Positions 1,138-45,705 of a stretch of DNA of 46,431 nucleotides are shown here, piece by piece; the first letter of the stretch is position 1, and each line of letters opens with the position of its first letter. The DNA is taken from NCBI GenBank assembly GCA_021146965.1, contig GCA_021146965.1_4847.1; one strand, written 5' to 3'. A program made the translations under genes and the position numbers. Source of the DNA: a phage. Under the pieces are notes generated by a model. That model worked only from the letters and a program-made list of their open reading frames with translations. It had not been told where the DNA came from and did not search any database.

Positions 1138-1511
1138 TGAATATGCTTGAACTGGTTGATGCATATCTTCAGGATGCAGGATTGTACGATGGCTGGACTT
1201 CGCAGCTGCAGTTCTGGAATGACACCGGAGATGGAAGTGAGCAATTTATTGTTCTGCAATCCAACGGTGGCACTCAGGTTATGGATGGCCTCGGCGGTGA
1301 CTTCTATTTTTCGCTGTATGTTGTTGGCAAACAAGGCCAATACAATGTTGCTGATGTTGATTCGAAGGCCAATGAGATTATCGAATACATCAAAACACAC
1401 CCGATTGATTCATGCGTTAACTACATCCAGTTGCAAGCGCCACTTGGCAGGGCAATGCTGACGGAAGAAAAAAGACCAGTGCATGAACTGCTATTGCGTG
1501 TTGTGAAATAA
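1137..1511 (+). CDS. putative tail completion / tail terminator protein
   Basis: 124-aa ORF, start overlaps upstream stop; last gene before terminator and major tail gene. Confidence 0.4.
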   Translation: MNMLELVDAYLQDAGLYDGWTSQLQFWNDTGDGSEQFIVLQSNGGTQVMDGLGGDFYFSLYVVGKQGQYNVADVDSKANEIIEYIKTHPIDSCVNYIQLQAPLGRAMLTEEKRPVHELLLRVVK

Positions 1512-1514
1512 ATA

Positions 1515-1540
1515 AAGCCGCATGAAGCGGCTTTTAATTT
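1515..1540 (+). terminator. rho-independent terminator
   Basis: hairpin AAGCCGC-atga-GCGGCTT followed by T-rich run directly after stop of 1137..1511. Confidence 0.6.
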
Positions 1541-1616
1541 GGTGGACACGGACGAATTTGAACCTTCAATCAGCCGATTATTAGTCGGTTGCTTTAACCA
1601 ATTAAGCTACGCGTCC
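1540..1616 (-). tRNA. tRNA-like gene (77 nt, encoded CCA; anticodon loop CUAAUAA, anticodon reads AAU, identity uncertain)
   Basis: minus-strand sequence GGACGCG-TA-GCTT-AATTGGTTA-AAGC-A-ACCGA-CTAATAA-TCGGC-TGATT-GAAGG-TTCAAAT-TCGTC-CGTGTCC-A-CCA folds as cloverleaf: 7-bp acceptor stem (one G-U), 4-bp D stem with GG in D loop, T8/A9, U33, T-loop TTCAAAT; one mismatch each in anticodon and T stems. Confidence 0.45.
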
Positions 1617-2137
1617 ATAAGTGCTGGTTTAAGCATTGCCAGCGTGCTTTCTTAACATCCAGCCCCGTAACCCATACATACCCCTACATATGATTGCGAT
1701 AATGCTGGATATTAAGTGTTGTGGTGGCCGGTGCTGATCTCCGGCATAAGGCGCTTATTCGGCGGCGTCGAGCTTGCTTATTCGCTTGAGCCATCCTCGT
1801 GAGTCAGCCACGTCCCACTGCGCATCAGCCTGCGCATTCACCACAACGGAAAGAGCACTGATGCGCTCACTTGGGACTCCTTAGCCATAACCCACGGGCT
1901 TCTGGTACACCAATGCTCTTACCTGTTGTGTTCCCTGACTTATTAATCACACCTCAGGGACGCAGTGCGCCGAATTTGTTTACAAGGAATCGGAAGACCT
2001 TGCTGACTTACAGGCTATTACGTCGCCATCAGAACAACATCATCGTTTGCATTTATCTTTGTGGTCAGTTTCTAAAAAGTCCGCAAAGTCGCTCACGAAA
2101 ACTATCTGAAATACAATCTACACCACAAAATAATCGC

Positions 2138-2158
2138 TGTCAACACCTGTGATATAAT
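2138..2158 (+). promoter_or_regulatory. putative sigma70 promoter with extended -10 (TGaTATAAT)
   Basis: TGTCAACAC at 2138-2146, TGA+TATAAT at 2150-2158, 37 nt upstream of major tail gene ATG; same TGTCAACAC...TGaTATAAT arrangement recurs at 3531-3556. Confidence 0.45.
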
Positions 2159-2194
2159 CACCACGTTAGCAGCTAACACAATTCGGAGATCGAA

Positions 2195-2914
2195 ATGGCT
2201 ATTTGTGCAAATGATAAAGGCATTCTGGTCGGTCGCATGACCCGACTGTTCCTTGCTGAAGGGTGCGGCGACGCAGTTCCGGATGCAGGCGACTGGAAGT
2301 ATTTAGGCTCAACCACCAGTAAAGGCGTTGACTACTCGCCGCAGACCACTACGTCGGAAGCGGATACCGCTGGCGGCTTTGTTTCTACTCTCGTTACCAG
2401 CTCTGATATGACCATCAGTGCAGAGGTAGAAATCCGCAAGAATGACCCGAGCGATGAGTTTGGCTTCCATCGTCTTGTTGAGATTTACACCACTGAACTG
2501 AAGGCTCGCCGCCAGCCTTCCTTGTGGGTGCGTCAGGTGACTGGTGCAACTATCGTTACCGCGTATTGCAACATCACCAGCATCAGCTACGAAGGTGGCA
2601 CGAACGATATCGTTACTGGTAGCCTTGAGTTTAAGGTTTACGATTCTGACAGCGTTACCGTAGAAAGCCTTGAACCTCTGGCATTCACTACCTACCTGCA
2701 ATCAACTGGCACGGCCGGAAGCCCGTTAACCGTTGCTGTTGAAGGTGGCGTTGCTCCTTACACTTATGTATGGCGCAAAGATGGCGCAGTTGTTGATGGT
2801 GAGTCTGGCGCATCTCTGGCAAGCCCTACCGCTGGCGTGTATACCGTCACGGTAACTGATTCATCTACCGCCCCGGAAATTATCATCAGCACGGCGTGCA
2901 CGGTATCCCGATAA
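2195..2914 (+). CDS. major tail protein with C-terminal Ig-like (Big_2-type) domain
   Basis: 239-aa ORF with GGAGA RBS; C-terminal ~70 aa (TVAVEGGVAPYTYVWRKDGAVVDGESGASL...YTVTVTD) is a typical Ig-like decoration domain of siphovirus major tail proteins; followed by terminator. Confidence 0.6.
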   Translation: MAICANDKGILVGRMTRLFLAEGCGDAVPDAGDWKYLGSTTSKGVDYSPQTTTSEADTAGGFVSTLVTSSDMTISAEVEIRKNDPSDEFGFHRLVEIYTTELKARRQPSLWVRQVTGATIVTAYCNITSISYEGGTNDIVTGSLEFKVYDSDSVTVESLEPLAFTTYLQSTGTAGSPLTVAVEGGVAPYTYVWRKDGAVVDGESGASLASPTAGVYTVTVTDSSTAPEIIISTACTVSR

Positions 2915-2916
2915 AG

Positions 2917-2945
2917 AAAAGCCCCGAAAGGGGCTTTGTTTTATT
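2917..2945. terminator. rho-independent terminator (likely bidirectional)
   Basis: AAAAGCCCC-gaaa-GGGGCTTT hairpin followed by GTTTTATT; lies between convergent genes 2195..2914(+) and 2941..3141(-). Confidence 0.65.
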
Positions 2946-3141
2946 CTTGTGGTGGTTCTGGCAGATTGGCCCAGTGGGTAGCTGGAATTCCGTGACAGCA
3001 GTCCAATTCACTAACAAATATCTTGCTGCCAATATTATCGACAGCTTTACATGCCGCAGTTCTAACAACACCGCGAAATGCTGTAAGAACCATCGTTCCT
3101 TCTTCTGGCATTCGCTCACTACACTTAATCCACTGGCTCAT
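2941..3141 (-). CDS. DUF551-like protein
   Basis: 66-aa ORF MSQWIKCSERMPEEG...IPATHWANLPEPPQE matches the DUF551 pattern recalled from phage proteins; translationally coupled (ATGA) to upstream ORF. Confidence 0.5.
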   Translation of the reverse strand: MSQWIKCSERMPEEGTMVLTAFRGVVRTAACKAVDNIGSKIFVSELDCCHGIPATHWANLPEPPQE

Positions 3142-3281
3142 ATCACCTTGTCCTCATCAAAAATCACGCCAATAACGCGAAGTAAGTCTTTCGCCATGCG
3201 TTCCGCTTCCTCGTAGTCGTAACCTGCATCAACATACAAATCAGTGTAGAAAATCAGGTCAGCTTTTGTTTGTTCGTTCAT
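3138..3281 (-). CDS. small hypothetical protein (47 aa incl. stop)
   Basis: ORF MNEQTKADLIFYTDLYVDAGYDYEEAERMAKDLLRVIGVIFDEDKVI linking two flanking genes by ATGA overlaps at both ends; below ORF-track size cut-off. Confidence 0.4.
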   Translation of the reverse strand: MNEQTKADLIFYTDLYVDAGYDYEEAERMAKDLLRVIGVIFDEDKVI

Positions 3282-3472
3282 TTCTTGTCGCCACTGTTAA
3301 CTAATGCCCAAACAAGTGCCGCAACCCATCCAATAAAGCTCCACCCGACAAGAATATTCAGTACACAGATTGCTGTCGTGTTTGTGTGCTTGCGTTGCAA
3401 AGCCACAAATGATGGAAGAAGATAAACAAATATAACCAATCCAGCAAAAAGCAACAAAATAACAACATCCAT
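3278..3472 (-). CDS. superinfection-immunity-like small membrane protein
   Basis: 64-aa ORF with two hydrophobic helices; motif YLLPSFVALQRKHTNTTAICVLNILVGWSFIGWVAALVWAL resembles the Imm_superinfect family signature (LP..IA..R.H.N..aI...N...GWt.iGWv.AL.WA) from memory. Confidence 0.5.
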   Translation of the reverse strand: MDVVILLLFAGLVIFVYLLPSFVALQRKHTNTTAICVLNILVGWSFIGWVAALVWALVNSGDKK

Positions 3473-3530
3473 AACTCACCTCATTCATATCTCGTTTCGA
3501 TGATTTGAATCTACATCACCACCTCGCAGG

Positions 3531-3556
3531 TGTCAACACTACTGAGATGATATAAT
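3531..3556 (+). promoter_or_regulatory. putative sigma70 promoter with extended -10 (TGaTATAAT)
   Basis: TGTCAACAC 3531-3539 and TGA+TATAAT 3548-3556, ~30 nt upstream of 3586 ATG. Confidence 0.45.
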
Positions 3557-3585
3557 CAACATCAGTCAAATTCAGGATGCAAAAC

Positions 3586-4323
3586 ATGAGCAATCGCACG
3601 CCACTAACAGAAATCGGGGAGATGCGCATCTCGCTTTCTGACAGGAGTTTTTTCTTTAAGCCATCATTCCGTGCCATGAATGAAATTGGCACGCCAAAAG
3701 AAATCGTCGAGGTATACGCTAAGCTCAATGGCATTGATTATATTGCGCCGTTGCAGCACGTCGAATACCTGCCATTTGGCGCGCAGATGCAGGTTATGAA
3801 GACCATCAGCAAACCTGTGTATGGTCGCCATGTACTGAGCGCAGCCTATATCGTCATGCAATCATGCTGTGAAGATGATATTTCTGTGCTGATTGGTGGA
3901 TGGAAGCCAACACCGCGCGGTGTGCGATACGTGCCGGGAGTAATGCCAATTGGCGGCACTGGACATTTGCCAGGTGGAACAGGTGGAATTATTGAGATTG
4001 CCCGCTCATTAATGGAGCACGGCATTATTGGCAAATCACCACTCAAAGTGCCTGAGCGTCTGGAAGAGCAGGGTAAGAAAACCACAAATGAGTTTCATGC
4101 GTCGCAATACATCATCTCAGCGCGCACGCATTTCGACATGACGCGTGATGAGGCCGAAAACCTGTCCATGACAGAGTTTCAGATGATGATTAAAAATAAA
4201 TATCCAGAGCCGAAAGGGTTAACGAAAGAAGAGCGCGCGGCAGAGTACGATCAGGCTAAAGCAGACCGTGAGCGCATGAAGGCACTGGCTGAACGCAAAG
4301 CGAAAAAAGCGAGGAATACATAA
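3586..4323 (+). CDS. putative tail assembly chaperone
   Basis: ORF immediately upstream of tape measure gene (1-nt overlap TAATG); start moved from 3577 to ATG 3586 for AGGA spacing; basic C-terminus; function assigned mainly by position. Confidence 0.45.
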   Translation: MSNRTPLTEIGEMRISLSDRSFFFKPSFRAMNEIGTPKEIVEVYAKLNGIDYIAPLQHVEYLPFGAQMQVMKTISKPVYGRHVLSAAYIVMQSCCEDDISVLIGGWKPTPRGVRYVPGVMPIGGTGHLPGGTGGIIEIARSLMEHGIIGKSPLKVPERLEEQGKKTTNEFHASQYIISARTHFDMTRDEAENLSMTEFQMMIKNKYPEPKGLTKEERAAEYDQAKADRERMKALAERKAKKARNT

Positions 4324-6697
4324 TGGCTGAAGAAGTCGGCGGAATTGTCTATGAAGTCGGGATGGATGTTAAAGGCCTGAAGGCTGGCGCGACAACAGCC
4401 AATAAGACTTTAGGTGACCTTGAATCATCAACCAACAAAACCACAAGCGCCCTTGGCAAGCTGGATAAAAACGCCAGAAATGCTGGCAGCGGAATGAAAA
4501 ATGCTGGCGGCGCAGCTTCAGGGCTAAAAACGCAGATGACGGCTCTTGCTGGCGCAATATCCGTGTCACTGATTATCGAATGGGGAAAGCGATTCCTTGA
4601 TGTTGCCGATAACATGACACAACTTCAGGCAAGGATTGCTCGCTTGTCAACTGATGCGAAAACCGCGAACGAAACATTCAGTACACTGGCAAATATCGCC
4701 TCGACCACTGGCGCAAGTCTCAGCGACACCACGAAGCTGTGGGAAACATTGACGTCATCACTGAAAGAGGCTGGCGCGACAAATGCGCAGGTTCTTAACC
4801 TTACTGACACTCTGCAAAAGATAGGACGAATCGGCGGGTCATCAACAGAAGAAATGGCGAACGCCCTGCGTCAGTTCGGTCAGTCAATTGCTTCTGGCAC
4901 AATCCGCGCCGAAGAATTTAACTCCATCCTTGAACAGATGCCTGAACTTGCGCGCCAGATTGCAGCTGGACTTGGCATTTCAATGGGCGAACTTCGCGCC
5001 AGAATGCTTGACGGAAAGCTGACGGCAGAAGATGCACTGAATGCCATTCAGGACAGGACAAGCATCGTCAATGCTGAGTTTGAAAAACTTCCTCGCACAA
5101 TGGATCAGGCCGTTGGTTCTCTTGAAGTTTCATTCTCCAAACTTGTGGTTGCCGTTAACGATGCCACTGGCGCATCAAAAACAGCAGTAGAGATTATCGA
5201 CCAGCTGGCAAAATACATTGATTTCCTCGGCGACAAATCAACCAGCACGAGCGACAAGATTCTATCTCTCGCCACGGTTATCTCGAAGCTAAACCCAGGC
5301 GCATGGGCACAAATGGGGGTTGATGCGCTTTTCGGTGATGATGATATTGAGAAGCAAAAACAATATAACGATCAAGTCGAGCGATTCGTTAAGGCTTCAA
5401 AAGAAGGTTACGAGCAGACAAAGAAACAGGCTGAAGCAACAAAACACCTGAAGATTGCACAAGCACCAACCAAAGACAAGAAAGGCAAAGGAAAGGGCAA
5501 AAGCGCCGAAGAACGGCAAGCTGAGTCAGTTGCTGAAAAGCTGGAGAAATTACGCCAGCAAACCATGCTTAATGCCACATCTACCAGCGAACTCTCCCGC
5601 GATCAAGCCATCCTCAACGCGCAGCAATCGCTTGGCAAGGCTGCCACTCAGGAACAAATAAAACTGGCTGGCGAGTACGCTGCGAAGATTTGGGACCAGA
5701 GAAACGCGCTGAAGGAGCAGGCAGCAGCTGAGAAAGAAAAGCAGCGCGTAGAAAAATCATATCAGGGGTTGCGCGCCATTGCGTCACCAACATCTGGCAT
5801 TGATAGTGAATACCAGCAACGCATGGCTGACCTTGACGCCTACGCCGCAGCATATCCACAAAAAATCACGGAGATTGAGCAGACTCGCGCAGCAATTGAG
5901 GCACAGTACCGCCAGCAGAGAATGGACGCCATGTGGGCTGAATGGCAGCAGCAAAGCCTCGGGGCGCAATTGTTCGGCACGGCGCTTGATTCAGCGATGA
6001 GTACAGCATCAAACAGCATCACTGGATTGCTCACAGGCACAATGAGCGTTCAGGATGCAATGCGCAGCCTCGGCTCTACGGTGCTGAATTCTCTGGTAAA
6101 CAGCTTTGTTGAAATGGGCGTTCAGTGGGTTAAATCCGCCGTTATGGGGCAGACTGCGCAGGTTGCGGCAACAGCTACCACCACAGCGGCGCAAACGGCA
6201 GGACTCGCAACCACAACAGCAGCATCAACTGCAGCGGCAGCAACCACTACCGCAGCATGGACTCCAGCGGCAATCGTAGCATCAATCGGTTCATTCGGCG
6301 GGGCGGCTGCAATTGGTGTAGGTGCTGTTCTCGGGGCACTGGCAATGGGTATCGCTGGCAAGCGAAAAAATGGCGGCTCAGTTAGCGCCGGAAGTATGTA
6401 CGAAGTGGGCGAAAATGGCTTGCCTGAAATATTCCAGGCGTCCAACGGTCGCCAGTATATGATTCCCGGCAACGATGGCTCAGTTATCAGCAACAAAGAC
6501 ATTACCGGAAGTGGCAGTGGCGTTGTGGTTTATAATAACGTGATAAATAACAGCTCTGCTCAGGTTAGCAGCAGTGCCAGAGATAATGGTGATGGCAGTG
6601 TGACGATTGAGACTATCGTTAGTGATATCGAAAACAACGGCCCTATCGGGCAAAGCATTGGAAGAAACTACTCAGCAAGCCGGAGGGCAACTGAATA

Positions 6698-6698
<1 letters not shown>
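4323..6698 (+). CDS. tail tape measure protein
   Basis: 791-aa protein, long coiled-coil-like central region, Ala/Thr-rich hydrophobic segment (AQTAGLATTTAASTAAAATTTAAWTPAAIVASIGSFGGAAAIGVGAVLGALAMGIAG) typical of TMPs; largest tail gene. Confidence 0.8.
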
Positions 6699-10502
<3,804 letters not shown>

Positions 10503-10541
10503 TACAATATACATCAAATTCACAAAGGAGCATTTATTATA

Positions 10542-12809
10542 ATGGCTACCACACCAACCAATAAACCAATTCCGTCAGAAGACCCGCGCGACCTGAAGTT
10601 TAATGCTGGTAAAATTGACGAAGTTGTCAACTCTGACAATCACTACTACACCGATCGCTTTGGTCATCGCCGCTTTACAATTGCAGGATTCCAACACACC
10701 GCAGAAGAAGCAATTCGTAACTATGGCTACATCACAATGGATAGCTTCGAGGATGGCGCGACGCTGACGTTACCGAATCAGGTTTTGCGCTATGAAGCTA
10801 CTGGAGAATATTACCGCTGGGATGGTGAATTCCCTAAAACAGTCGCTTCTGGTTCAGCTCCTGCATCCGCTGGCGGTGTTGGAATTGGGAAATGGTTGAG
10901 TGTTGGTGATGCAGCCCTGCGCAGCCAGATTTCAGACCCGGATGGTGCGTCCAGTTACCCTGAATTGCAGATGGCAAGATGGCGTGATGAGGGTGATGTT
11001 CGAGGCTGGGGTGCTAAAGGGGATGGTGTAACGGATAGTACGGAGAATATAGCTGCTTCACTAAATTCTCAAAAAGCTGTCGTAGCATCAGACGGTGTAT
11101 TCTCTAGTTCTGGTATTAATAGTAATTACTGTAACTTAGACGGTAGAGGCAGTGGTGTACTAAGTCACCGTTCAAGTACAGGTAACTACTTAGTATTTAA
11201 CAATCTACGCTCAGGTCGCTTAAGTAATATTACGGTAGAAAGTAATAAGGCGACCGATACCACTCAAGGGAAGCAGGTATCTCTTGCTGGTGGTAGTGAT
11301 GTTACTATAAGTGATGTTAATTTCTCAAACGTTAAGGGCATTGGTTTCAGTTTAATCACATACCCTAATAATGCACCCTCTGATGGGCTTATGATTAAAG
11401 GCATTCGAGGTAGCTACTCCGGCTATGCTACTAATAAGGCGGCTGGATGCATACTTGCTGATTCCTCGGTTAACTCCCTCATAAATAACGTCATTGCTAA
11501 GAACTACCCTCAGTTCGGGGCTGTAGAACTGAAAGGTACAGCCAGTTATAACATAGTCAGCAATGTTATAGGGGCAGACTGCCAGCATGTAACTTACAAC
11601 GGTACAGAAGGGTCAATAGCTCCCTCTAACAACCTTATCAATGGGGTAGTGGCTAATAATCCTAAATATGCAGCGGTTGTTGCAGGCAAAGGTAGTGCCA
11701 ACTTAATCTCAGATGTGCTTGTAGATTTCTCAATCTCTGATGCTAGGCAGGCTCACGGTGTTACAGTAGAAGGTTCTGATAACGTCATAAATAATGTGCT
11801 TATGTCAGGATGTGATGGTAATAACTCTTTAGGGCAAGCTCAGACTGCTACAATTGCGCGCTTTATAGGTACAGCTAATAACAACTATGCGTCTGTATTT
11901 CCTAGCTACAGTGCTACAGGTGTTATTACTTTCGAATCAGGTTCTACCCGTAACTTCGTAGAGGTAAAGCATCCGGGAAGGAGAAACGACCTTCTCAGTA
12001 CTGCTAGTGCTATTAGCGGTGCAGATACTATTGACGGCACTAATAATAGCAACGTAGTGCACGCCCCTGCATTAGGGCAGTACATAGGCAGTATGTCCGG
12101 TAGGTTCGAATGGCGGATTAAGTCCATGTCACTTCCGTCAGGCGTTCTTACCTCGGCTGATAAGTACAGAATGCTTGGGGATGGTGCTGTGTCATTAGCT
12201 GTAGGAGGGGGTACTTCTTCTCAAGTTCGCCTATTTACTTCTAATGGTACTTATCGGACAGTATCACTCACCAACGGTAACGTGCGTCTTCCTACCAGTA
12301 GCACAGGTTATTTGCAGTTAGGTTCTGATGCAATGACCCCAGATAGTACTAATACATACGCATTAGGTTCCGCAAGTAGAGCATGGTCTGGCGGTTTTAC
12401 TCAATCAGCATTCACTGTTGTCTCAGATGCTAGGGATAAAACAGAGCCTCTTAATATCTCAGATGCTTTACTGGATGCTTGGTCTGAAGTTGACTTTGTG
12501 CAGTTTCAGTACTTGGACCGAATTGAGGAGAAGGGTGCAGACTCAGCTAGATGGCACTTCGGCATCATCGCTCAGCGAGCTAAGGAGGCATTCGAACGTC
12601 ACGGTATAGATGCACATCGCTATGGCTTCCTGTGCTTCGACAGTTGGGATGATGTATACGAGGAAGATGCCAATGGCTCTCGTAAACTGATTACACCAGC
12701 AGGTTCCCGCTACGGTATTCGTTACGAGGAAGTACTGATATTAGAGGCTGCGTTGATGCGGCGTACTATTAAGCGTATGCAGGAAGCATTAGCTGTTATG
12801 TCTAAGTGA
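10542..12809 (+). CDS. tailspike protein with pectate-lyase-like beta-helix and C-terminal intramolecular chaperone (peptidase S74-type) domain
   Basis: 755 aa; GWGAKGDGVTD motif typical of right-handed beta-helix depolymerases; C-terminal ~130 aa (SDARDKTEPL...WHFGIIAQRAKEAF...YGIRYEEVLILEAALMRR) matches the auto-cleaving chaperone domain of endosialidase/T5 L-shaped fibre type. Confidence 0.8.
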   Translation: MATTPTNKPIPSEDPRDLKFNAGKIDEVVNSDNHYYTDRFGHRRFTIAGFQHTAEEAIRNYGYITMDSFEDGATLTLPNQVLRYEATGEYYRWDGEFPKTVASGSAPASAGGVGIGKWLSVGDAALRSQISDPDGASSYPELQMARWRDEGDVRGWGAKGDGVTDSTENIAASLNSQKAVVASDGVFSSSGINSNYCNLDGRGSGVLSHRSSTGNYLVFNNLRSGRLSNITVESNKATDTTQGKQVSLAGGSDVTISDVNFSNVKGIGFSLITYPNNAPSDGLMIKGIRGSYSGYATNKAAGCILADSSVNSLINNVIAKNYPQFGAVELKGTASYNIVSNVIGADCQHVTYNGTEGSIAPSNNLINGVVANNPKYAAVVAGKGSANLISDVLVDFSISDARQAHGVTVEGSDNVINNVLMSGCDGNNSLGQAQTATIARFIGTANNNYASVFPSYSATGVITFESGSTRNFVEVKHPGRRNDLLSTASAISGADTIDGTNNSNVVHAPALGQYIGSMSGRFEWRIKSMSLPSGVLTSADKYRMLGDGAVSLAVGGGTSSQVRLFTSNGTYRTVSLTNGNVRLPTSSTGYLQLGSDAMTPDSTNTYALGSASRAWSGGFTQSAFTVVSDARDKTEPLNISDALLDAWSEVDFVQFQYLDRIEEKGADSARWHFGIIAQRAKEAFERHGIDAHRYGFLCFDSWDDVYEEDANGSRKLITPAGSRYGIRYEEVLILEAALMRRTIKRMQEALAVMSK

Positions 12810-16100: not shown

Positions 16101-16526
16101 TTAATCTACGTCATCCAGCAAGCCAAAATAGAAAAGCGTGGCTTTTTTTAATTCATCAAGCCCATAAGCTATGGCAGCATAATGACCAAGCCTGCACATC
16201 TCTGTTAGCACTGCTGATTGATCCTTGCTCACCCTGCTTTTGCTTTTATCGCGGCGCTTTGCTTCAATCATCCCACAACTGTGATTTACCCCCGGAGTCA
16301 TTATCACATTGTCGCCTATACCAGCCTTAACCCCCATCTTCTGGCGCTTCAGCACAAACTGCACCCTGCTTGATGTGCCAGTTTCGTTGGGTACATGAAA
16401 CCACAGAACATCAGGGAAGCGGTGTTGCATCCATGTTCCATAACCCATCTGGTCAGTCTCCTCTTTTGGGCATTCTCCTCGATAACCGCTATCAAATACC
16501 CATATACCGCTATCAAGCTGCTTCAC
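16101..16526 (-). CDS. VRR-NUC domain nuclease
   Basis: 141 aa; GMIEAKRRDK...SKDQSAVLTEMCRLGHYAAIAYGLDEL fits VRR-NUC (D..EAK then Q..w...G) pattern; adjacent to SF2 helicase as commonly seen; GTG start with AAGGA RBS. Confidence 0.6.
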   Translation of the reverse strand: MKQLDSGIWVFDSGYRGECPKEETDQMGYGTWMQHRFPDVLWFHVPNETGTSSRVQFVLKRQKMGVKAGIGDNVIMTPGVNHSCGMIEAKRRDKSKSRVSKDQSAVLTEMCRLGHYAAIAYGLDELKKATLFYFGLLDDVD

Positions 16527-18713: not shown

Positions 18714-18742
18714 TTGATGTTTCTACGTCAGTTAGCTTATAC
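18714..18742 (+). promoter_or_regulatory. putative sigma70 promoter for primase gene
   Basis: TTGATG (18714-18719) - 17 nt - TTATAC (18737-18742); spacer contains TCTACGTCA motif copy. Confidence 0.4.
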
Positions 18743-22309: not shown

Positions 22310-22362
22310 ATTATAATTGAATCATATCATAACTATTGAATCATGCAACATCAAATACGACT

Positions 22363-22671: not shown

Positions 22672-22694
22672 AGCACGTTTTTAACGCATTCATG

Positions 22695-22723
22695 TTGACG
22701 TAGAATCACAACTGATGTAGATT
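22695..22723 (+). promoter_or_regulatory. putative rightward early promoter
   Basis: TTGACG (22695-22700) - 17 nt - TAGATT (22718-22723), 30 nt upstream of first rightward ORF. Confidence 0.55.
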
Positions 22724-24326: not shown

Positions 24327-24480
24327 ACAGAAAGTCTGGCAACTCGCAAAGCAGCACGAATTAGACGATTTCATCGAGAAGGTTGCAAAGACATTCCCTG
24401 ACGCGCTTGAAGTCGTTCATGTGCAGACGCGAAATGAAAATGCATGGTGCTACACAAAAAATCATACAAATGGTAGATGA
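24313..24480 (+). CDS. hypothetical protein
   Basis: internal ATG of track ORF 24247..24480; overlaps neighbours as in coupled operon. Confidence 0.3.
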   Translation: MQTTKQKVWQLAKQHELDDFIEKVAKTFPDALEVVHVQTRNENAWCYTKNHTNGR

Positions 24481-24907
24481 AATGAAGCTAACAAAAAAAC
24501 AACGCGAAGAGCTACGCATGAAGTTCGGTGGTCGCTGTGCTTATTGTGGGTGTGAGCTACCCGAGAAAGGTTGGCATGCAGACCATGTTGAACCAGTGCT
24601 ACGTAAATCTGAGCAGTGCATGAAGGCAGCGGCGAAAGGGATTTTCAAGCTGAAGGCAACCGGTGAGCTATATCGACCAGAAGCCGAGCGACTGGAAAAC
24701 CTTTACCCTGCGTGCGCCCCCTGCAATCTGATGAAAACTTCCTATTCCCTGGAAATGTTCAGGAAGCAGGTATCTCTTCAGGTTGCTCGTGGGCGCAAAA
24801 GCAGCATGAATTTCCGCACTGCAGAGCGTTTCGGTCTTATCGCCGTGGTGGAGAGACCAGTTGTTTTCTGGTTTGAGAAATACCAGGAAGAGAACGAAAA
24901 AAAATAA
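24470..24907 (+). CDS. HNH endonuclease (classical zinc-finger HNH, packaging-associated type)
   Basis: CAYCGCEL...WHADHVEPV...NLYPACAPCNLMK; located just upstream of terminase genes as for cos-phage HNH proteins; start uncertain (24434/24470). Confidence 0.7.
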   Translation: MVDEMKLTKKQREELRMKFGGRCAYCGCELPEKGWHADHVEPVLRKSEQCMKAAAKGIFKLKATGELYRPEAERLENLYPACAPCNLMKTSYSLEMFRKQVSLQVARGRKSSMNFRTAERFGLIAVVERPVVFWFEKYQEENEKK

Positions 24908-25546: not shown

Positions 25547-26059
25547 ATGCGACCCTTAAAAGAAGAAAAACTCACGCAAGACAGGCTGAAAGAGTTGCTG
25601 CATTATAACCATGATACTGGTATTTTCACATGGGTTCAGCGCGCCTCAAAAAGCGTAAGAGTTGGTAATTCAGCTGGCAGTAAGAATAAGTCAGGCTATA
25701 TAGATATACGCATCGATAAGTCTTTACACAAAGCTCATCGGCTTGCGTGGCTTTACATTTATGGTGTGTGGCCCAATGGGAAAATAGATCACATCAATAA
25801 CGTGAAGACAGATAACAGAATCTGCAACCTGAGAGAAGCAAGCAATAATGAAAACGGATGGAATGCTGGTAAACCATCGACAAATACGTCAGGAGTAAAA
25901 GGTGTGAGTTGGGATGCAGAGAAAAATAAATGGAAGGCGCATTGCAGGGTTTTTGGGAAAAAATATACAGTAGGTAGGTTTTCATCAAAAGAATATGCTG
26001 AGAGAGCCGTGGCGGAGTTCAGAGAGAAACATCACGGGGAGTTTTTTAATCATGGCTAG
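25547..26059 (+). CDS. HNH homing endonuclease with AP2 domain (paralog 2 of 4), inserted between terS and terL
   Basis: IDHINNVKTDNRICNLREA motif plus AP2-like SGVKGVSWDAEKNKWKAHCRVFGKKYTVGRF; 3' end overlaps terL start. Confidence 0.8.
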   Translation: MRPLKEEKLTQDRLKELLHYNHDTGIFTWVQRASKSVRVGNSAGSKNKSGYIDIRIDKSLHKAHRLAWLYIYGVWPNGKIDHINNVKTDNRICNLREASNNENGWNAGKPSTNTSGVKGVSWDAEKNKWKAHCRVFGKKYTVGRFSSKEYAERAVAEFREKHHGEFFNHG

Positions 26060-27492: not shown

Positions 27493-27524
27493 TTGACCAA
27501 TCTACACCGAGCGCATAGTATAAT
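27493..27524 (+). promoter_or_regulatory. putative promoter for accessory cassette
   Basis: TTGACC (27493-27498) - 17 nt - TAGTAT (27516-27521), overlapping TATAAT 27519-27524; contains CAATCTACACC motif copy. Confidence 0.45.
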
Positions 27525-27552
27525 CTACATCAGGCTTATCGGAGATATCACT

Positions 27553-27759
27553 ATGCGCAGCTATGCAGGGTTCACACAGGAGGAGAAAGAGCAGGTTTAT
27601 TCACTGGCTCGGGCTGGTGTGCCAGATGAGGTGATTTGCCGTCGGTATGACATCGACGAGGATTTCCTGCTGCGCGTTATTGATGATGTCTTCGTTAACC
27701 TGCAAGAGAAGCGCGGATATAAAGGTATCTGCTGCAAGAATGATTTTTTGAGAGGGTGA
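27553..27759 (+). CDS. hypothetical protein
   Basis: ATG with GGAGA RBS; internal start of track ORF 27493..27759. Confidence 0.4.
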   Translation: MRSYAGFTQEEKEQVYSLARAGVPDEVICRRYDIDEDFLLRVIDDVFVNLQEKRGYKGICCKNDFLRG

Positions 27760-28528: not shown

Positions 28529-28563
28529 TGCTATAATCCCTCCATCGTGAGGGATTTTTTATT
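28529..28563 (+). promoter_or_regulatory. hairpin with T-run (terminator-like) overlapping an extended -10 element TGcTATAAT
   Basis: TGC+TATAAT at 28529-28537; AATCCCTC-catcgt-GAGGGATT hairpin 28535-28556 followed by TTTTTATT; 9 nt upstream of portal ATG. Confidence 0.4.
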
Positions 28564-28568
28564 GGTGA

Positions 28569-30915
<2,347 letters not shown>

Positions 30916-32267: not shown

Positions 32268-32353
32268 CACTTGATGTAGATACTATGCACCACCAACCAA
32301 TCTACGTCAACACCATTGTGATAGAATTAATCATTATTTGAACTGGAGGCAGA
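32268..32353. promoter_or_regulatory. divergent promoter/operator region with inverted motif pair
   Basis: TTGATGTAGAT (32271-32281) and inverted CAATCTACGTCAACA (32298-32312) between divergent operons; GGAGG RBS at 32345-32349. Confidence 0.45.
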
Positions 32354-32632
32354 ATGAAACTATCGCAACGAGGCGTGGAGACGTTTGGAATTACCGATGC
32401 CGTGAATATATCGCCTTACATCACTACCGAGACAACGCAGAATCAGTTCGACGCGCTGGCAAGTCTTGCCACCGACATTGGCATTTACGCGTTCCGTAAA
32501 TCAACGCTTCTGAAGAAGCACAACCTCCGCTGCTTCTCATGTGCTGTTGCGCATTTCATCGCGTGGGGCGAGAAGACTGGCGACAAAGCAAAACGCAAAG
32601 CTGAAAAAGAGGTTTACTGGTATGGCTATTAG
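32354..32632 (+). CDS. GH24 (P22 gp19-type) lysozyme-like protein lacking the catalytic N-terminal core (probable gene remnant)
   Basis: 92 aa; C-terminal part TTQNQFDALASLATDIGIYAFRKSTLLKKHNL matches the conserved Q.Q.DAL.SL..N.G..AF..ST.L..LN segment of P22-type lysozymes, but the E/D/T catalytic region and ~55 aa are absent; 3' end overlaps endolysin start. Confidence 0.5.
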   Translation: MKLSQRGVETFGITDAVNISPYITTETTQNQFDALASLATDIGIYAFRKSTLLKKHNLRCFSCAVAHFIAWGEKTGDKAKRKAEKEVYWYGY

Positions 32633-34471: not shown

Positions 34472-34773
34472 TATTTAATCTCTCCGTTCAGTTCATTAAC
34501 AATTAACGTTGCATAGCCAGCAATATCTTTCCAGCTGTCATCATAAGTCGGGTCGCCATTCAGAATGCGCCCAATCTTGTGCTGAATCATGTCGAGCGCC
34601 TCGCGTTGACTTGGTGTGAGATTGCGCCAGCCATCTACCTTGCGCATCACATCTTTCAACTCCTGCATAATTTCAGCGCCGTCTTTGAATTTACCGTATC
34701 GACTACCGCGTTCGGTGATGAGTCGCTCTGTTGCGTCAGTATGGCGCTTATCGCCCGTGATTTGTGAACTCAT
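34471..34773 (-). CDS. hypothetical protein
   Basis: 100-aa ORF, ATG start. Confidence 0.45.
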   Translation of the reverse strand: MSSQITGDKRHTDATERLITERGSRYGKFKDGAEIMQELKDVMRKVDGWRNLTPSQREALDMIQHKIGRILNGDPTYDDSWKDIAGYATLIVNELNGEIK

Positions 34774-35260
34774 TGTGATGCATTCTCCTGAATTCTTTTA
34801 TTTTTGCTTCTGCTTCTCTTATGTCGGAAAAGTAACCAACTGTGAATCTTTTGCCATTTACTCCAACTCTTGCATGCCACTTGTTGTGCGATGAACTCCA
34901 GTTAACCCCCTTGATACCGCTAGTGTTGTTTTTGTTCATTGCTTTGTTGTGGCTATTCTCAAATTTGCTGGCCTCCCTTAAATTGCACGCCCTGTTGTCA
35001 TTGCGAATGCCATTAATGTGGTCAATCATTTCACTTGCTGGCGCGCCATGAATGCATATCCATGCCAATCTGTGAGCAAGAAAAGCCCTACCGCAAAGAA
35101 TTATTTGCACATATCCATCTGGCTTTAAGTAGCCAGCCACACTCCCTTTTTCTGCAATCCTATTCCTTGTCTTTAGCCATTTAAATTCCCCAGTTAGTGG
35201 ATTGTAGTAAAGGTAACTCAATATAAACTCCCTACTCGGCTCATCTCTCCTATGCCTCAT
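34748..35260 (-). CDS. HNH homing endonuclease with AP2 domain (paralog 3 of 4)
   Basis: IDHINGIRNDNRACNLREA plus AP2-like SGIKGVNWSSSHNKWHARVGVNGKRFTVGYF. Confidence 0.8.
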   Translation of the reverse strand: MRHRRDEPSREFILSYLYYNPLTGEFKWLKTRNRIAEKGSVAGYLKPDGYVQIILCGRAFLAHRLAWICIHGAPASEMIDHINGIRNDNRACNLREASKFENSHNKAMNKNNTSGIKGVNWSSSHNKWHARVGVNGKRFTVGYFSDIREAEAKIKEFRRMHHNEFTNHGR

Positions 35261-35490: not shown

Positions 35491-35535
35491 TTGACGTTTC
35501 TACATCATTTAGTCAATACTTGTTGACGTAGATTG
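35491..35535. promoter_or_regulatory. divergent promoter/operator region with tandem TTGACG... motif copies
   Basis: TTGACGTTTCTACATCA (35491-35507) and TGTTGACGTAGATTG (35521-35535) between divergent genes 35257..35463(-) and 35563..35760(+). Confidence 0.45.
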
Positions 35536-35562
35536 TACCACAACGGAAAAGGTGATGTGGAA

Positions 35563-35820: not shown

Positions 35821-36015
35821 ATGGCGCATGACGAACTGTACGAAGAATCGTTAATCCAGAGGTTGAATGAAGTTGAGCGCACTCGCGAATGGCTGGAGTG
35901 CGAGTTACGAGAAGTGCGCAACCGCCTGCAACGCAAGCGCAGTCAGCAAAGAGATGTCATCGACTGGTCTGGGGGTACACCTAAATTTAACAATCTGGGA
36001 GAATGGTTGAAATGA
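35821..36015 (+). CDS. hypothetical coiled-coil protein
   Basis: 64-aa ORF. Confidence 0.4.
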   Translation: MAHDELYEESLIQRLNEVERTREWLECELREVRNRLQRKRSQQRDVIDWSGGTPKFNNLGEWLK

Positions 36016-36542
36016 GCAACATTAGTAAGGAAAGCATTTTAAAGTTCCTCCAGCATGATGAAAATACAGGAAACTTTCTATGGATTGATAATTTCTCAAG
36101 AAAATCAAAGAAAGGGAAGGTGGCTGGAGGTATTACATCGCATGGGTATTGGAGAATTCAACTCCCCATCGGGAGGTTTTACGCACACAGAATGGCGTGG
36201 ATTGTTTGCAATGGAGATATACCAAACGGATATGAGATTGATCACATAAATGGGAACAAGAAAGATAATCGCATCAGCAACCTAAGATTGGTCACAAGAG
36301 GTCAAAATGTTATGAATGTAGGCGTGAAAAACAATAATACAAGCGGAGTTAAGGATGTTGTTTGGGACTCTTCGCGAGAAAGGTGGAGGGTTCAAATTAC
36401 AGCCAATGGCAAGCATTATTATGGAGGTAGATTCTCGTCAATAACACAAGCAAAAGAGGAGAGGAACAGGCTCATAAAGATGGTTCACGGGAAATTTTTG
36501 AATACAAAAGGTGAGCAATATGACACTACTAATGAACGATGA
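36012..36542 (+). CDS. HNH homing endonuclease with AP2 domain (paralog 4 of 4)
   Basis: IDHINGNKKDNRISNLRLV plus AP2-like SGVKDVVWDSSRERWRVQITANGKHYYGGRF; ATG 36012 with GGGAGA RBS. Confidence 0.8.
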   Translation: MSNISKESILKFLQHDENTGNFLWIDNFSRKSKKGKVAGGITSHGYWRIQLPIGRFYAHRMAWIVCNGDIPNGYEIDHINGNKKDNRISNLRLVTRGQNVMNVGVKNNNTSGVKDVVWDSSRERWRVQITANGKHYYGGRFSSITQAKEERNRLIKMVHGKFLNTKGEQYDTTNER

Positions 36543-36756
36543 GAAATTACTTGAATGCCCGTTTTGTGGTTGTGATGACGTAAGTGTTATTGATGACGGC
36601 GAATGGTTGCACGTTGAGTGCGGAGATTGTTTTTGCCGCACTGACTCGTATTGCTGCGCATCCACGGCAATGAAGAAATGGAACACAAGAGGTGGACACC
36701 TCTACACTTCCGACGACTTCAATCAGGCAGCAGAGGAGCGTGATTATGGACTATAA
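36520..36756 (+). CDS. Lar-family restriction alleviation protein (zinc ribbon)
   Basis: LECPFCGCDD...HVECGDCFCRT...AMKKWNTR pattern matches the Lar restriction-alleviation family as recalled; start 36520 or 36532. Confidence 0.5.
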   Translation: MTLLMNDEKLLECPFCGCDDVSVIDDGEWLHVECGDCFCRTDSYCCASTAMKKWNTRGGHLYTSDDFNQAAEERDYGL

Positions 36757-37234
36757 ATCACAAATCATGCGCGTGATTATGAATCACCCCGGAGCAACGC
36801 GCGCATACATTGAGAAGCATTGCGGAGGTAAGCATTCAAGCACCACAACGCATCGCTTACATGAGATGCTTGCTCTTGGATTCATTCGTCGCGAGAAGTC
36901 AGTGATTCGCGGCGGCAAGTGGCAGTATAAATATTTCATCTCTGATGATGCAGCCGGTATTGATGATGCTATTAAGTGCCATTTGCTTGATAACGCTGGC
37001 GCGGAAGTGAAAGAAATCAGTACCACCACTGGCATTGATTATCGCATCGTGAAAAGCCGCATCCGCATTATGTTTCATAACGGTGATGTGACGCGAAGCT
37101 ATGACCACCACAAGAAGCTGTGGCGTTATTCATGGAAGGAGAAGGAAGTCAATGTAAGCAATCTATTTAATTCACTTCTTCGCAGCGTAAGGGGTCAGCA
37201 TGGGAAAAGCCAAACGCAAGAAGCAAGAGTATGA
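36746..37234 (+). CDS. hypothetical protein with two tandem winged-helix-like repeats
   Basis: internal ATG with GAGGAG RBS; two similar ~55-aa repeats; C-terminal end uncertain. Confidence 0.4.
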   Translation: MDYKSQIMRVIMNHPGATRAYIEKHCGGKHSSTTTHRLHEMLALGFIRREKSVIRGGKWQYKYFISDDAAGIDDAIKCHLLDNAGAEVKEISTTTGIDYRIVKSRIRIMFHNGDVTRSYDHHKKLWRYSWKEKEVNVSNLFNSLLRSVRGQHGKSQTQEARV

Positions 37235-38364: not shown

Positions 38365-38558
38365 CTCCGTATATCTTTTGTTCATCATGGGCTGCTATCA
38401 TTTAATCAGGAAGTAGCCCATGAACATAATCCCTATCACTTACTTTCTCACGCTATACGCACTCACCAATTCGCCATTGTTTGCACTGGCTACCGCCTCG
38501 TGGTGCTATATCTCCCTGTGTTATAATTCGACCACAAACTAACCGTGGAGAGTTAACC

Positions 38559-40452
<1,894 letters not shown>

Positions 40453-42346: not shown

Positions 42347-42432
42347 AAAGTCACTCCTAATTTGGTTTTATATTACCACGAGTGTAACTAGTGTGCTACA
42401 ATTAACCAGCATTAACTCATGAGGATATTTAA

Positions 42433-42630
42433 ATGGCTAAATACGAAGTGATTGCGCGAGGCATCTTTGTCAAAGAAAAAGGCAAGATTCGTGAGTTGCA
42501 GCTTGGCGAGGTGATTACCGAACCTGCTGATCATCTGATGTCAAAGCTGCGCGTTATGCCAGAACTGGAAAAATCTTTCGAAGTCGCAACCCCGCAAGAA
42601 AAGACGACAAAGAAAAAGAAAGCAGAGTAA
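42433..42630 (+). CDS. hypothetical protein
   Basis: 65-aa ORF with GAGGA RBS followed by terminator. Confidence 0.45.
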   Translation: MAKYEVIARGIFVKEKGKIRELQLGEVITEPADHLMSKLRVMPELEKSFEVATPQEKTTKKKKAE

Positions 42631-44317: not shown

Positions 44318-45127
44318 TCACATCTTCTCCAGAATTGCCATAACCTCGTGAATGTCAGCAACAGGAATCTGAATAAATTCCTCATCCTCTGCCACCACAT
44401 GACCAGCAGGGAGAATTACATGGTCAGCTGGCTTCAGTAACTCAATCAGGCGGTCTACTGGCTTAATCTTTTTCGACTTCAGCACTTTGGCTGTGACCTT
44501 ATCCTTGCCTTGCGCCTTCGCTTCTTCGACCGCTTCGTCGATAACTTTTACCGCATCATCTCCATGTTCGCGCGTTACCGCTACGGCATTTGCATAGCTG
44601 ATCTGTCCGGCACTGATTCGCGCTTTTACTTCCGCAGGCACATCACCCAACGACAGGTGCATTTGCACGTCAGATACTGAGCGGCCTACCTTCTTGGCGA
44701 TTTCCTCGTTTGTCCAGCCAAAACCTTTCAGACGCGTGTAAGCCTTTGCGCGTTCAAACGGGTCAAGTTGCTTGCCCTGACTTGATGACACCATGAATGC
44801 GATTTTGTCAGCCTCGTCGCCAGTAAAATCCTTACACTCAATGCGAACGATTGGTGCGCCGCGCTCAATGGCTCGCAATGCGCCGAGGTAGCGATGCTGC
44901 CCATCAAGAATGCGGATACCTTTATCGTCAGGAATAACTGTTAATGCTGGCAATGGCTGACCTGACTCCCAGCACTGCGCGAAATATTCCACATGCTGCT
45001 CATCTGCTTCACGGATGTTGTATCCCGGCTCCAGATAGATTTGCTCTACTGGCACGAGGTAGGTTTTGTTAACAGCGATACCGTTACGCGTTTCTTTGTC
45101 TGAATAGATTTTGCTTAGTGTTTTCAT
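44318..45127 (-). CDS. ParB-like protein (ParB/Srx N-terminal domain plus HTH)
   Basis: ILDGQHRYLGALRAIERGAPIVRI matches ParB/sulfiredoxin-fold core; central TNEEIAKKVGRSVSDVQMHLSL resembles ParB HTH. Confidence 0.6.
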   Translation of the reverse strand: MKTLSKIYSDKETRNGIAVNKTYLVPVEQIYLEPGYNIREADEQHVEYFAQCWESGQPLPALTVIPDDKGIRILDGQHRYLGALRAIERGAPIVRIECKDFTGDEADKIAFMVSSSQGKQLDPFERAKAYTRLKGFGWTNEEIAKKVGRSVSDVQMHLSLGDVPAEVKARISAGQISYANAVAVTREHGDDAVKVIDEAVEEAKAQGKDKVTAKVLKSKKIKPVDRLIELLKPADHVILPAGHVVAEDEEFIQIPVADIHEVMAILEKM

Positions 45128-45492: not shown

Positions 45493-45554
45493 TTGTTTCT
45501 ACGTCACTAACTATAAACGCACCACCAATCTACGTCAACAGGAATATGCTAAAA
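45493..45554. promoter_or_regulatory. divergent promoter/operator region with two motif copies
   Basis: TTTCTACGTCA (45497-45507) and CAATCTACGTCAACA (45526-45540); on minus strand these give TTGACG - 17 nt - TATAGT; TAAAAT at 45549-45554 for rightward genes. Confidence 0.45.
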
Positions 45555-45585
45555 TCATGCTAATCAAACAACAGGAGATTTAAAC

Positions 45586-45705
45586 ATGGGTTCAACCAAC
45601 TCACCATCTCGTTCGCGCGCTACTGGCAACACAAAAACTGGCGGCAAAACTGGCGTGGTGAAGCCAAACGGCTCTACCCGTTCACCATCGCGCGGTAAAA
45701 AATAA
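45586..45705 (+). CDS. small basic Ser/Thr/Gly-rich protein (39 aa)
   Basis: ORF MGSTNSPSRSRATGNTKTGGKTGVVKPNGSTRSPSRGKK with AGGAGA RBS; TAATG-coupled to next gene. Confidence 0.35.
   Translation: MGSTNSPSRSRATGNTKTGGKTGVVKPNGSTRSPSRGKK

Follow-up and report, generated by a model that had tools for sequence, protein, structure and literature searches.

How is transcription restarted ahead of each structural module of a phage when the DNA preceding these modules carries well-formed -10 elements and no good -35 hexamers? This question is raised by the sequence TGATATAAT, found at positions 2150..2158 just upstream of the major tail protein gene, and by related sequences ahead of other modules in the window, that is, the whole stretch of 46,431 nucleotides analysed here. 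The preliminary description of this DNA had proposed a set of -35-independent promoters, possibly late promoters under the control of an activator, and had pointed to a second sequence, TGTCAACAC, shared by two of them. On the basis of position, conservation in relatives and RNA folding, it will be argued here that four motifs are most probably extended -10 promoters used by the host sigma-70 polymerase, without need of a -35 box or of an activator, and that they would restart the rightward structural modules.

Phage and relatives

The window (46.4 kb) is the nearly complete, rotated genome of a virulent siphovirus. A tested segment of 4 kb is ~98% identical to Escherichia phages HC6 and 6947, and 91-96% identical to ZCEC08, ST1UNAM and Shigella phage Sf11. 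The phage belongs to the HC6/ZCEC08/Sf11 group, which consists of unclassified Caudoviricetes with Cedarrivervirus and Swiduovirus relatives and is near to, but distinct from, the T1 family; Sf11 itself is classified in the genus Cedarrivervirus, with no family. Since this group was described in the ZCEC08 paper as a lineage separate from the Drexlerviridae (PMC12001532), T1 is used below as a distant comparator only. The comparison extends to a Klebsiella clade, whose tail protein is only ~54% identical to that of the present phage. The literature on T1-like, Drexlerviridae and Cedarrivervirus phages yielded no transcription start site or transcriptome data.

The four motifs are numbered site 1 (2150), site 2 (3548), site 3 (28529, portal) and site 4 (38519, head). 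Among the relatives, 34 sequences covering both site 1 and site 2 were collected, along with 34 full-length loci at site 3 and 73 loci at site 4, and the gene starts used in the positional test are 69 HC6 starts mapped onto the window. The genome also contains three paralogous homing-endonuclease-like genes with HNH_3 and AP2 domains, at 25547-26059(+), 34748-35260(-) and 36003-36542(+), as well as a further HNH gene at 24383-24907, all four being scattered over the genome.

Extended -10 motifs ahead of the structural modules

At site 1, TGATATAAT (2150..2158, +) precedes the major tail protein gene (2195-2914), with a predicted start of transcription near 2165. The same sequence is found at site 2 (3548..3556, +), ahead of the tail operon (3586-12809). 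The first gene of this operon (3586 onward), for a DUF6246/phrog_791 protein, occupies the tape-measure-chaperone position and is succeeded by those of the tape measure and of the tail. At site 3, TGCTATAAT (28529..28537, +) lies ahead of the portal gene (28572-29984) and the head-morphogenesis gene, which together span 28572-30915. The presence of these three motifs, all on the + strand, had been reported previously and is confirmed; a fourth perfect match, TGTTATAAT at 38519..38527 (+), had been overlooked. This fourth motif is located inside the 3' end of a small ORF (38421-38543), 32 nt before an ATG at 38559 that is provided with a GGAG ribosome-binding site. The product of this last gene is a 471-aa phrog_760 head-module protein, and decoration-like and capsid genes come next. 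The lack of good -35 hexamers is equally real. At spacers of 16-18 nt the best match to a -35 hexamer is limited to 1-2/6 positions (2/6 at the 2150 site, 1/6 at the 3548 site), and the -10 hexamer matches at 6/6 positions at the four sites and at 5/6 at seven further gene-proximal sites.

Short A/T-rich motifs of this kind could be chance matches in A/T-rich intergenic DNA, devoid of function, and their raw number would be compatible with such an origin: four perfect TGnTATAAT are present in the window against 1.86 expected, and at least four are obtained in 10/100 shuffles, a count that is not significant alone. Their strand and position argue otherwise. The four perfect motifs (4/4) all end 30-37 nt 5' of a start codon on the same strand (P ~6e-6 for uniform placement), and, of the 35 relaxed motifs (TGn with at least 5/6 of the hexamer), 11 are located 10-75 nt 5' of a start on their own strand where 1.74 would be expected (binomial 6e-7), both figures coming from a positional test that leaves the A/T-richness of intergenic DNA out of account. 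When the conservation of the motifs is also considered, a chance origin appears hardly credible.

Conservation of the motifs

The sequence TGNTATAAT is kept at sites 1, 2, 3 and 4 in 34/34, 34/34, 34/34 and 73/73 relatives, respectively, and the TG dinucleotide (-15/-14) is invariant in the same numbers (34/34, 34/34, 34/34 and 73/73). At sites 1 and 2, conservation among close relatives is ~100% over the entire intergenic block, so that the motif is inseparable from its surroundings there; the discriminating evidence is provided by site 3, site 4, the Klebsiella clade and two pairs of loci, L010/L023 and L032/L033. At site 1, the motif is kept as TGATATAAT in 39/40 Klebsiella-clade loci, and CTGTGATATAAT is still present in L032/L033 where the upstream sequence is wholly different. 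At site 2, variable bases flank the motif on both sides among the 34 relatives.

The situation is most informative at the portal. In the 34 relatives, R-TG-N-TATAAT is invariant at site 3 with N being C, A or T, even if part of the conservation of the hexamer's three final bases is explained by their additional pairing in a terminator stem. Directly 5' of about -17, identity drops to 30-60% and at least eight unrelated sequences adjoin the motif; in the 34 full-length loci, neither a -35 box nor an activator site is retained upstream. At site 4, TGTGTTATAAT is invariant in 73/73 relatives with variable flanks and a downstream protein that is 75-94% identical, a count to be read with the caveat that the motif lies within the small ORF. 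It encodes there the last codons of this ORF (Cys-Tyr-Asn), and the three wobble positions are all fixed as T. In the leader that follows (38528-38558, with equivalents in L100-L146), an inverted repeat overlapping the ribosome-binding site, CCAC...GTGG, was seen by eye only; in the Klebsiella clade it reads CCGGGC...GCGCGG, and this repeat may be a covarying 5' stem.

Klebsiella phage YX3973 reproduces every junction. In this genome TGATATAAT is found ahead of the tail protein gene, TGGTATAAT ahead of the tail operon, TGCTATAAT with its hairpin ahead of the portal gene, TGTTATAAT ahead of the head genes, TGATAAAAT before the endolysin gene and TGATACAAT before the fiber gene.

With a motif that is invariant in relatives when its N and its flanks vary, and with conservation ending at about -17 at the portal site, the idea of a -35-independent extended -10 set ahead of structural modules is supported. 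The polymerase would recognise the TG motif together with the consensus -10. Transcription is predicted to start ~7 nt downstream, near 28544 at site 3 and 38534 at site 4, to give a leader of ~24-30 nt and to require no upstream activator site.

Putative divergent leftward promoters

As previously described, TGTCAACAC does precede the first two motifs (2138-2146 and 3531-3539), though its spacing to the TG motif is unequal, 3 nt in one case and 8 nt in the other. If the rightward promoters were activator-dependent late promoters, this shared element would be the site at which a phage activator substitutes for the -35 contact. Such a proposal can call upon the identity of TGTCAACAC at the two sites, the strongly non-random distribution of its family in the genome and the nature of the genes served, which are structural and typically late. 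The opposite strand, however, offers a different picture. Indeed, TGTCAACAC is the reverse complement of GTGTTGACA, which contains a consensus -35 located at both sites exactly 17 nt from TAGATT. Two putative leftward sigma-70 promoters of the form GTGTTGACA-N17-TAGATT can be delineated in this way, the first at 2115..2146 (- strand, -35 at 2143..2138 and -10 at 2120..2115) and the second at 3508..3539 (- strand, hexamers within 3536..3508). Both are located in divergent intergenic regions, have hexamers separated by the 16-18 bp of sigma-70 promoters, and are followed by genes, a tRNA or terminators.

The 2115..2146 promoter faces ~490 nt (1617-2108, -) without a convincing ORF, then a tRNA-Ile gene (1616..1540) and a terminator. 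The 1617-2108 slot (-) has no annotation in HC6 and is occupied by at least four unrelated sequences among the relatives. An Rfam search of 1400-3700 returned only the tRNA-Ile, tmRNA-like matches falling far below the gathering score. The 3508..3539 promoter is oriented toward three small leftward genes, a superinfection-immunity-like gene (3472..3278) followed by 3281..3138 and 3141..2941, which end at a strong bidirectional terminator (2918..2937, both strands) between the major tail protein gene and this leftward cargo. The hairpin of this terminator folds at -18.2 kcal/mol (z -4.2), and 0/200 shuffles fold as well. Because of this terminator, the tail operon would need its own promoter at 3548.

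The relatives retain the leftward hexamers and their 17-18-nt spacing while the spacer itself varies or is swapped outright (L010/L023, YX3973 and the Klebsiella clade); in L010/L023, for instance, both hexamers are kept at site 2 around an unrelated 18-nt spacer. To the left of AATCTA at site 1, at least four unrelated classes of sequence are found in the close relatives and at least six in the Klebsiella clade. The distance between TGTCAA and the TG motif amounts to 6, 11, 0 or 2 nt across sites and relatives. With no fixed helical phase, this variation fits two independent back-to-back promoters and not an activator site. Moreover, sites 3 and 4 lack the TGTCAACAC element, as does site 1 in L032/L033. 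Finally, the core elements supposed to be too weak by themselves are perfect TGnTATAAT sequences, with which both the -35 and CRP/CII-type activation were dispensable in the cases studied (PMC2613000). The activator-dependent scheme is consequently very improbable, and the role thereby implied for TGTCAACAC has to be abandoned: judged from its sequence context, this element is the -35 box of a second, opposite-facing putative promoter and not an activator site. A reading of AATCTAC as part of a rightward -10 (TACAAT, with the TAC that precedes at 2112) was also tried and discarded, as it is not consistent elsewhere.

The predicted starts of the two back-to-back promoters are ~57 bp apart at site 1, near 2165 and 2108, and ~62 bp apart at site 2, near 3563 and 3501. 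Given an RNA polymerase footprint extending from -55 to +20 (PMC2613000), we infer that one polymerase probably excludes the other. At strand switches, the putative extended -10 promoters stand back to back with a leftward promoter-like sequence of the -35 type (TGTTGAC[A/G], 17 nt, then TAGATT, CATAGT or TATAGT).

Two further observations concern these intergenic regions. The sequence CACCACC (GGTGGTG when read leftward) is present in 12 copies against 3.85 expected (0/100 shuffles), for example at 3517-3523, 32288-32294 and 45520-45526; several leftward -10 hexamers have it directly on their 5' side, and the Klebsiella clade retains it too. In addition, unrelated cargo sequences are joined, in mosaic fashion, precisely where the conserved promoter or terminator elements end on their outer side, at ~2114 for site 1 and ~28526 for site 3 (L002-L071, L184-L222), which suggests that these short conserved blocks may serve as recombination linkers for cargo exchange.

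A probable promoter fused to a terminator at the portal junction

The motif at 28529 overlaps a terminator hairpin, a feature absent from the preliminary description. This intrinsic terminator, composed of the arms AATCCCTC / GAGGGATT and a T6 run, occupies 28535..28562 (+), and the end of the -10 hexamer is shared with its left arm. The hairpin at 28535-28562 is GC-rich, is directly followed by the U-run and has its pairing maintained in the course of evolution: the stem arms covary, with three compensatory types being observed (CCCTC/GAGGG, CCCATC/GATGGG and CCCC/GGGG). Folded in a context of 67 nt, it reaches -17.7 kcal/mol (z -2.07). When the variants were folded one by one, the hairpin of the read-through RNA was found at -10.9 to -16.1 kcal/mol in 7/8 of them, versus 0 to -2.2 kcal/mol for an RNA begun 7 nt after the -10. 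The latter starts in the loop, so the hairpin cannot form. A MAFFT alignment of the site-3 region submitted to RNAalifold led to no predicted structure, the unequal loops putting the arms out of register.

These properties point to a simple sorting of transcripts. A read-through RNA coming from the upstream cargo would form the portal hairpin and stop there, and an RNA initiated at the promoter would begin inside the hairpin, be unable to form it and restart the portal module. The logic of the portal junction is likely an insulation from variable upstream cargo transcripts.

For this site only, TATAAT (28532-28537) might not belong to a promoter and might instead form the A/T-rich foot of the terminator stem, with the portal gene being expressed by read-through or from a promoter located farther upstream. 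It is true that the stem is closed at its base by pairing of AAT with ATT, that hairpin and T-run together make a good terminator, and that the annotation of T1 at its portal junction mentions a terminator only. Nevertheless, TG and TAT are outside the stem and yet invariant in 34/34 relatives, while N and all upstream positions vary. The hairpin can even be replaced entirely: L046 and the T1 terminase-to-portal junction keep the -10 element despite different, shifted hairpins. An efficient terminator 10 nt before the portal ribosome-binding site would also leave this gene without a promoter, the upstream DNA being unrelated cargo. A mere stem base is therefore improbable, and the extended -10 promoter is retained at site 3 as at the other sites.

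A palindrome at the predicted start of the major tail protein transcript

A perfect palindrome of 13 bp, GTTAGCAGCTAAC, is located at 2165..2177; for the major-tail-protein promoter this position would be +1..+13. Another sequence, GTTTAGCTAAAC, takes its place in the Klebsiella clade (393-404 in L149), with an identical offset and an equally perfect dyad symmetry. The palindrome is single-copy and shows no enrichment in the window; it might function as an operator or fold into a stem at the 5' end of the transcript. Comparable sequences are known as operators of plasmid RK2, namely OB of KorB, TTTAGC(C/G)GCTAAA, and OA of KorA, GTTTAGCTAAAC (PMC2680271). The agreement is 10/13 between GTTAGCAGCTAAC and OB and 12/12 between the Klebsiella-clade GTTTAGCTAAAC and OA, a likeness that was noticed after the domain match of a phage protein. 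This ParB-family HTH protein is encoded at 44318-45127(-), such a protein being present in both phage clades, and it is far closer to Spo0J (4e-13) than to KorB (0.004). The putative KorB operator is accordingly kept as a lead only.

Two putative promoter classes along the genome

Motifs of the extended -10 type are not limited to the four perfect examples, and the five that follow have a single mismatch. The lysis module (ATG near 32354) is preceded by TGATAGAAT (32319..32327, +), with one mismatch in the hexamer, and the head-tail connector module (start at 45586) by TGCTAAAAT (45547..45555, +). Both are back to back with a leftward promoter-like sequence, TTGACG-17-CATAGT (32310..32282) in the first case and TTGACG-17-TATAGT (45538..45510) in the second. 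Three additional examples are TGCTACAAT (42394..42402, +), 31 nt before the ATG at 42433; TGATACAAT (10500..10508, +), internal to the tail operon and located 34 nt upstream of the distal tail/fiber gene (10542-12809, 755 aa); and the one-mismatch TGCTATCAT, starting at 38393, for the small ORF at 38421. The rightward structural and lysis genes are split into modules by leftward accessory cassettes and terminators, and each rightward module would be restarted by an extended -10 promoter, either TGnTATAAT or a one-mismatch variant. From the genes served, a late timing of these rightward promoters is plausible.

The -35 type has its own signature. A third copy of the promoter type containing TGTCAACAC, here in the rightward orientation, is found at 22692..22723 (+) as ATGTTGACG-N17-TAGATT, at the head of a region of small, presumed early genes, and is conserved in YX3973 5' of gp17. 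The 9-mer TGACGTAGA is present in 7 copies against 0.22 expected (0/100 shuffles), at 16105-16113(-), 18722-18730(-), 22696-22704(+), 32301-32309(-), 35524-35532(+), 45498-45506(-) and 45529-45537(-). All these copies are intergenic and face a downstream gene, and most of them consist of the -35 (TTGACG) with the first bases of the spacer. Two copies, read as TGACGTAGAAAC, are instead near the predicted +1, away from the -35 position, which hints at an operator-like role. For a 14-mer, AATCTACGTCAACA, 7 matches with no more than two mismatches were counted, the expected number being 0.28. The copy number of the TGACGTAGA family is equal at the equivalent junctions of HC6 and YX3973, and is 0 in T1.

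As far as sequence can tell, extended -10 promoters would thus head the structural and lysis modules, and promoters of the -35 type (TGACGTAGA family) the accessory or early modules. This rule is imperfect, as extended -10-like motifs are also found at two leftward modules (22321-22329 and 35532-35540). A promoter-like site with TTGACC-17-TAGTAT / TATAAT was noticed at 27493-27528 between two AATCTAC copies 23 nt apart, directly after the large-terminase gene and ahead of an ORF (27493-27759).

The existence of two classes, largely segregated by gene type, raises the possibility of a promoter-class switch. The extended -10 promoters would be constitutively competent and held down early in infection, until a phage factor disabling -35 recognition lets them take over at the late stage. 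At the back-to-back cassettes, where starts 57-62 bp apart have to be compared with a footprint of -55 to +20 (PMC2613000), such a factor would also free the extended -10 promoter from being occluded by its strong leftward neighbour. There are precedents for this mode of regulation: the extended -10 middle and late promoters of Thermus phage P23-45 are spared by gp39, a protein that prevents the recognition of -35 elements (PMC3950348), and AsiA of T4 likewise spares TGn/-10 promoters (PMC2613000). The segregation of the two classes is nevertheless imperfect, and Pfam scans of 30 ORFs revealed no AsiA- or gp39-like protein, even if such factors are small, diverse and poorly conserved, so that this negative result weighs little. 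The same scans, inspected for sigma or RNA polymerase modulators, returned none, and only HNH-AP2 endonucleases, DUF6378, the ParB-like HTH protein and a sub-threshold MarR-like match (36692-37234). The switch is attractive, yet considered doubtful. An extended version combines several of the elements described above. In this version, two classes of host sigma-70 promoters would be arranged in overlapping back-to-back cassettes throughout this widespread group of virulent enterobacterial siphoviruses, a -35 class (TGTTGACGTAGA family) for accessory and early genes and a 'pure' extended -10 class for structural and lysis genes. The changeover would be produced by a factor that either disables -35 recognition or clears the leftward promoter, and the covarying palindrome at +1, possibly bound by the ParB/KorB-like protein of the phage, might add an extra layer. 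Taken as a whole, this version is considered unlikely, and extended -10 promoters that need no activator remain the preferred explanation.

Significance

What is found here is a clear, well-conserved case of a known promoter class in a modular arrangement. Its practical value lies in annotation and engineering. These sites escape standard promoter finders in which a -35 is mandatory; in TLS, a member of the T1 family, a search for TTGACA-N15-19-TATAAT gave only three intergenic promoters (PMC11447400). The annotations of HC6, ZCEC08 and the Klebsiella phages are therefore devoid of promoters for the structural genes, in a group of phages that is used therapeutically. The comparison of relatives is also a natural experiment of uncommon clarity, in which, at the level of sequence, all the DNA beyond about -17 on the upstream side would be dispensable, and it shows that the edges of promoters and terminators coincide with the points of accessory-cargo exchange. 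If the two classes were temporally separated, this group would provide an E. coli model for promoter-class switching; the general interest is modest unless such a temporal switch is established.

Comparison with known systems

The closest parallel is provided by the extended -10 promoters of E. coli, such as the galP1 derivatives, lambda Pre* and cysG (PMC2613000), in which a TG at -15/-14 and a consensus -10 are likewise found and a -35 cannot be recognised. The mechanism expected to be shared is a contact of sigma region 3.0/2.4 with the TG, replacing the contact of region 4 with the -35. The present sites differ in having a perfect TATAAT at all four positions and, at the portal, a -35 region that is unconstrained in sequence, with at least eight unrelated versions. 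According to the statement of Kumar et al. (1993) quoted in PMC2613000, there was no clear natural example of a 'pure' extended -10 promoter. By their sequence, the sites described here appear closer to this pure form than the known E. coli examples.

Phage P23-45 with gp39 and phage T4 with AsiA share with the present phage the assignment, predicted here, of structural or later genes to extended -10 promoters without -35, other promoters being of the -35/-10 class. In contrast to P23-45, the host here is E. coli or another enterobacterium.

In T1, the late modules are described as 'transcriptons' that have rho-independent terminators at their borders and are served by RpoD-dependent promoters, according to the account given in PMC11447400, which cites the T1 genome paper. 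As in the present phage, the structural region is modular, a terminator directly precedes the portal ribosome-binding site and a -10-like element precedes the terminator. The portal junction of T1 (L147, 10530-10585) has indeed the same layout as site 3, T-run included: aGaTATAAT, a t, the hairpin, TTTTTATT, GGAGG and the ATG. Several other T1 'terminator' junctions have -10-like elements directly on one side or the other of the hairpin, e.g. TGGTAATAT at 28556. T1 differs in that it is devoid of the TGACGTAGA family and 0/4 of its TGNTATAAT matches are found at these junctions. Conversely, the 21-nt repeat of TLS and T1, ATAGCACnnnTTGnTAAAA, has 0 matches in the window with 3 mismatches allowed.

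The cassettes finally recall the morons, accessory genes lodged between structural genes and equipped with a promoter and a terminator of their own, as well as divergent overlapping promoter pairs, which use upstream DNA in common. In the present phage, however, the cassettes run opposite to the structural genes, the same compact two-promoter cassette is found at several junctions, and the cargo is swapped precisely at the edge of the promoter.
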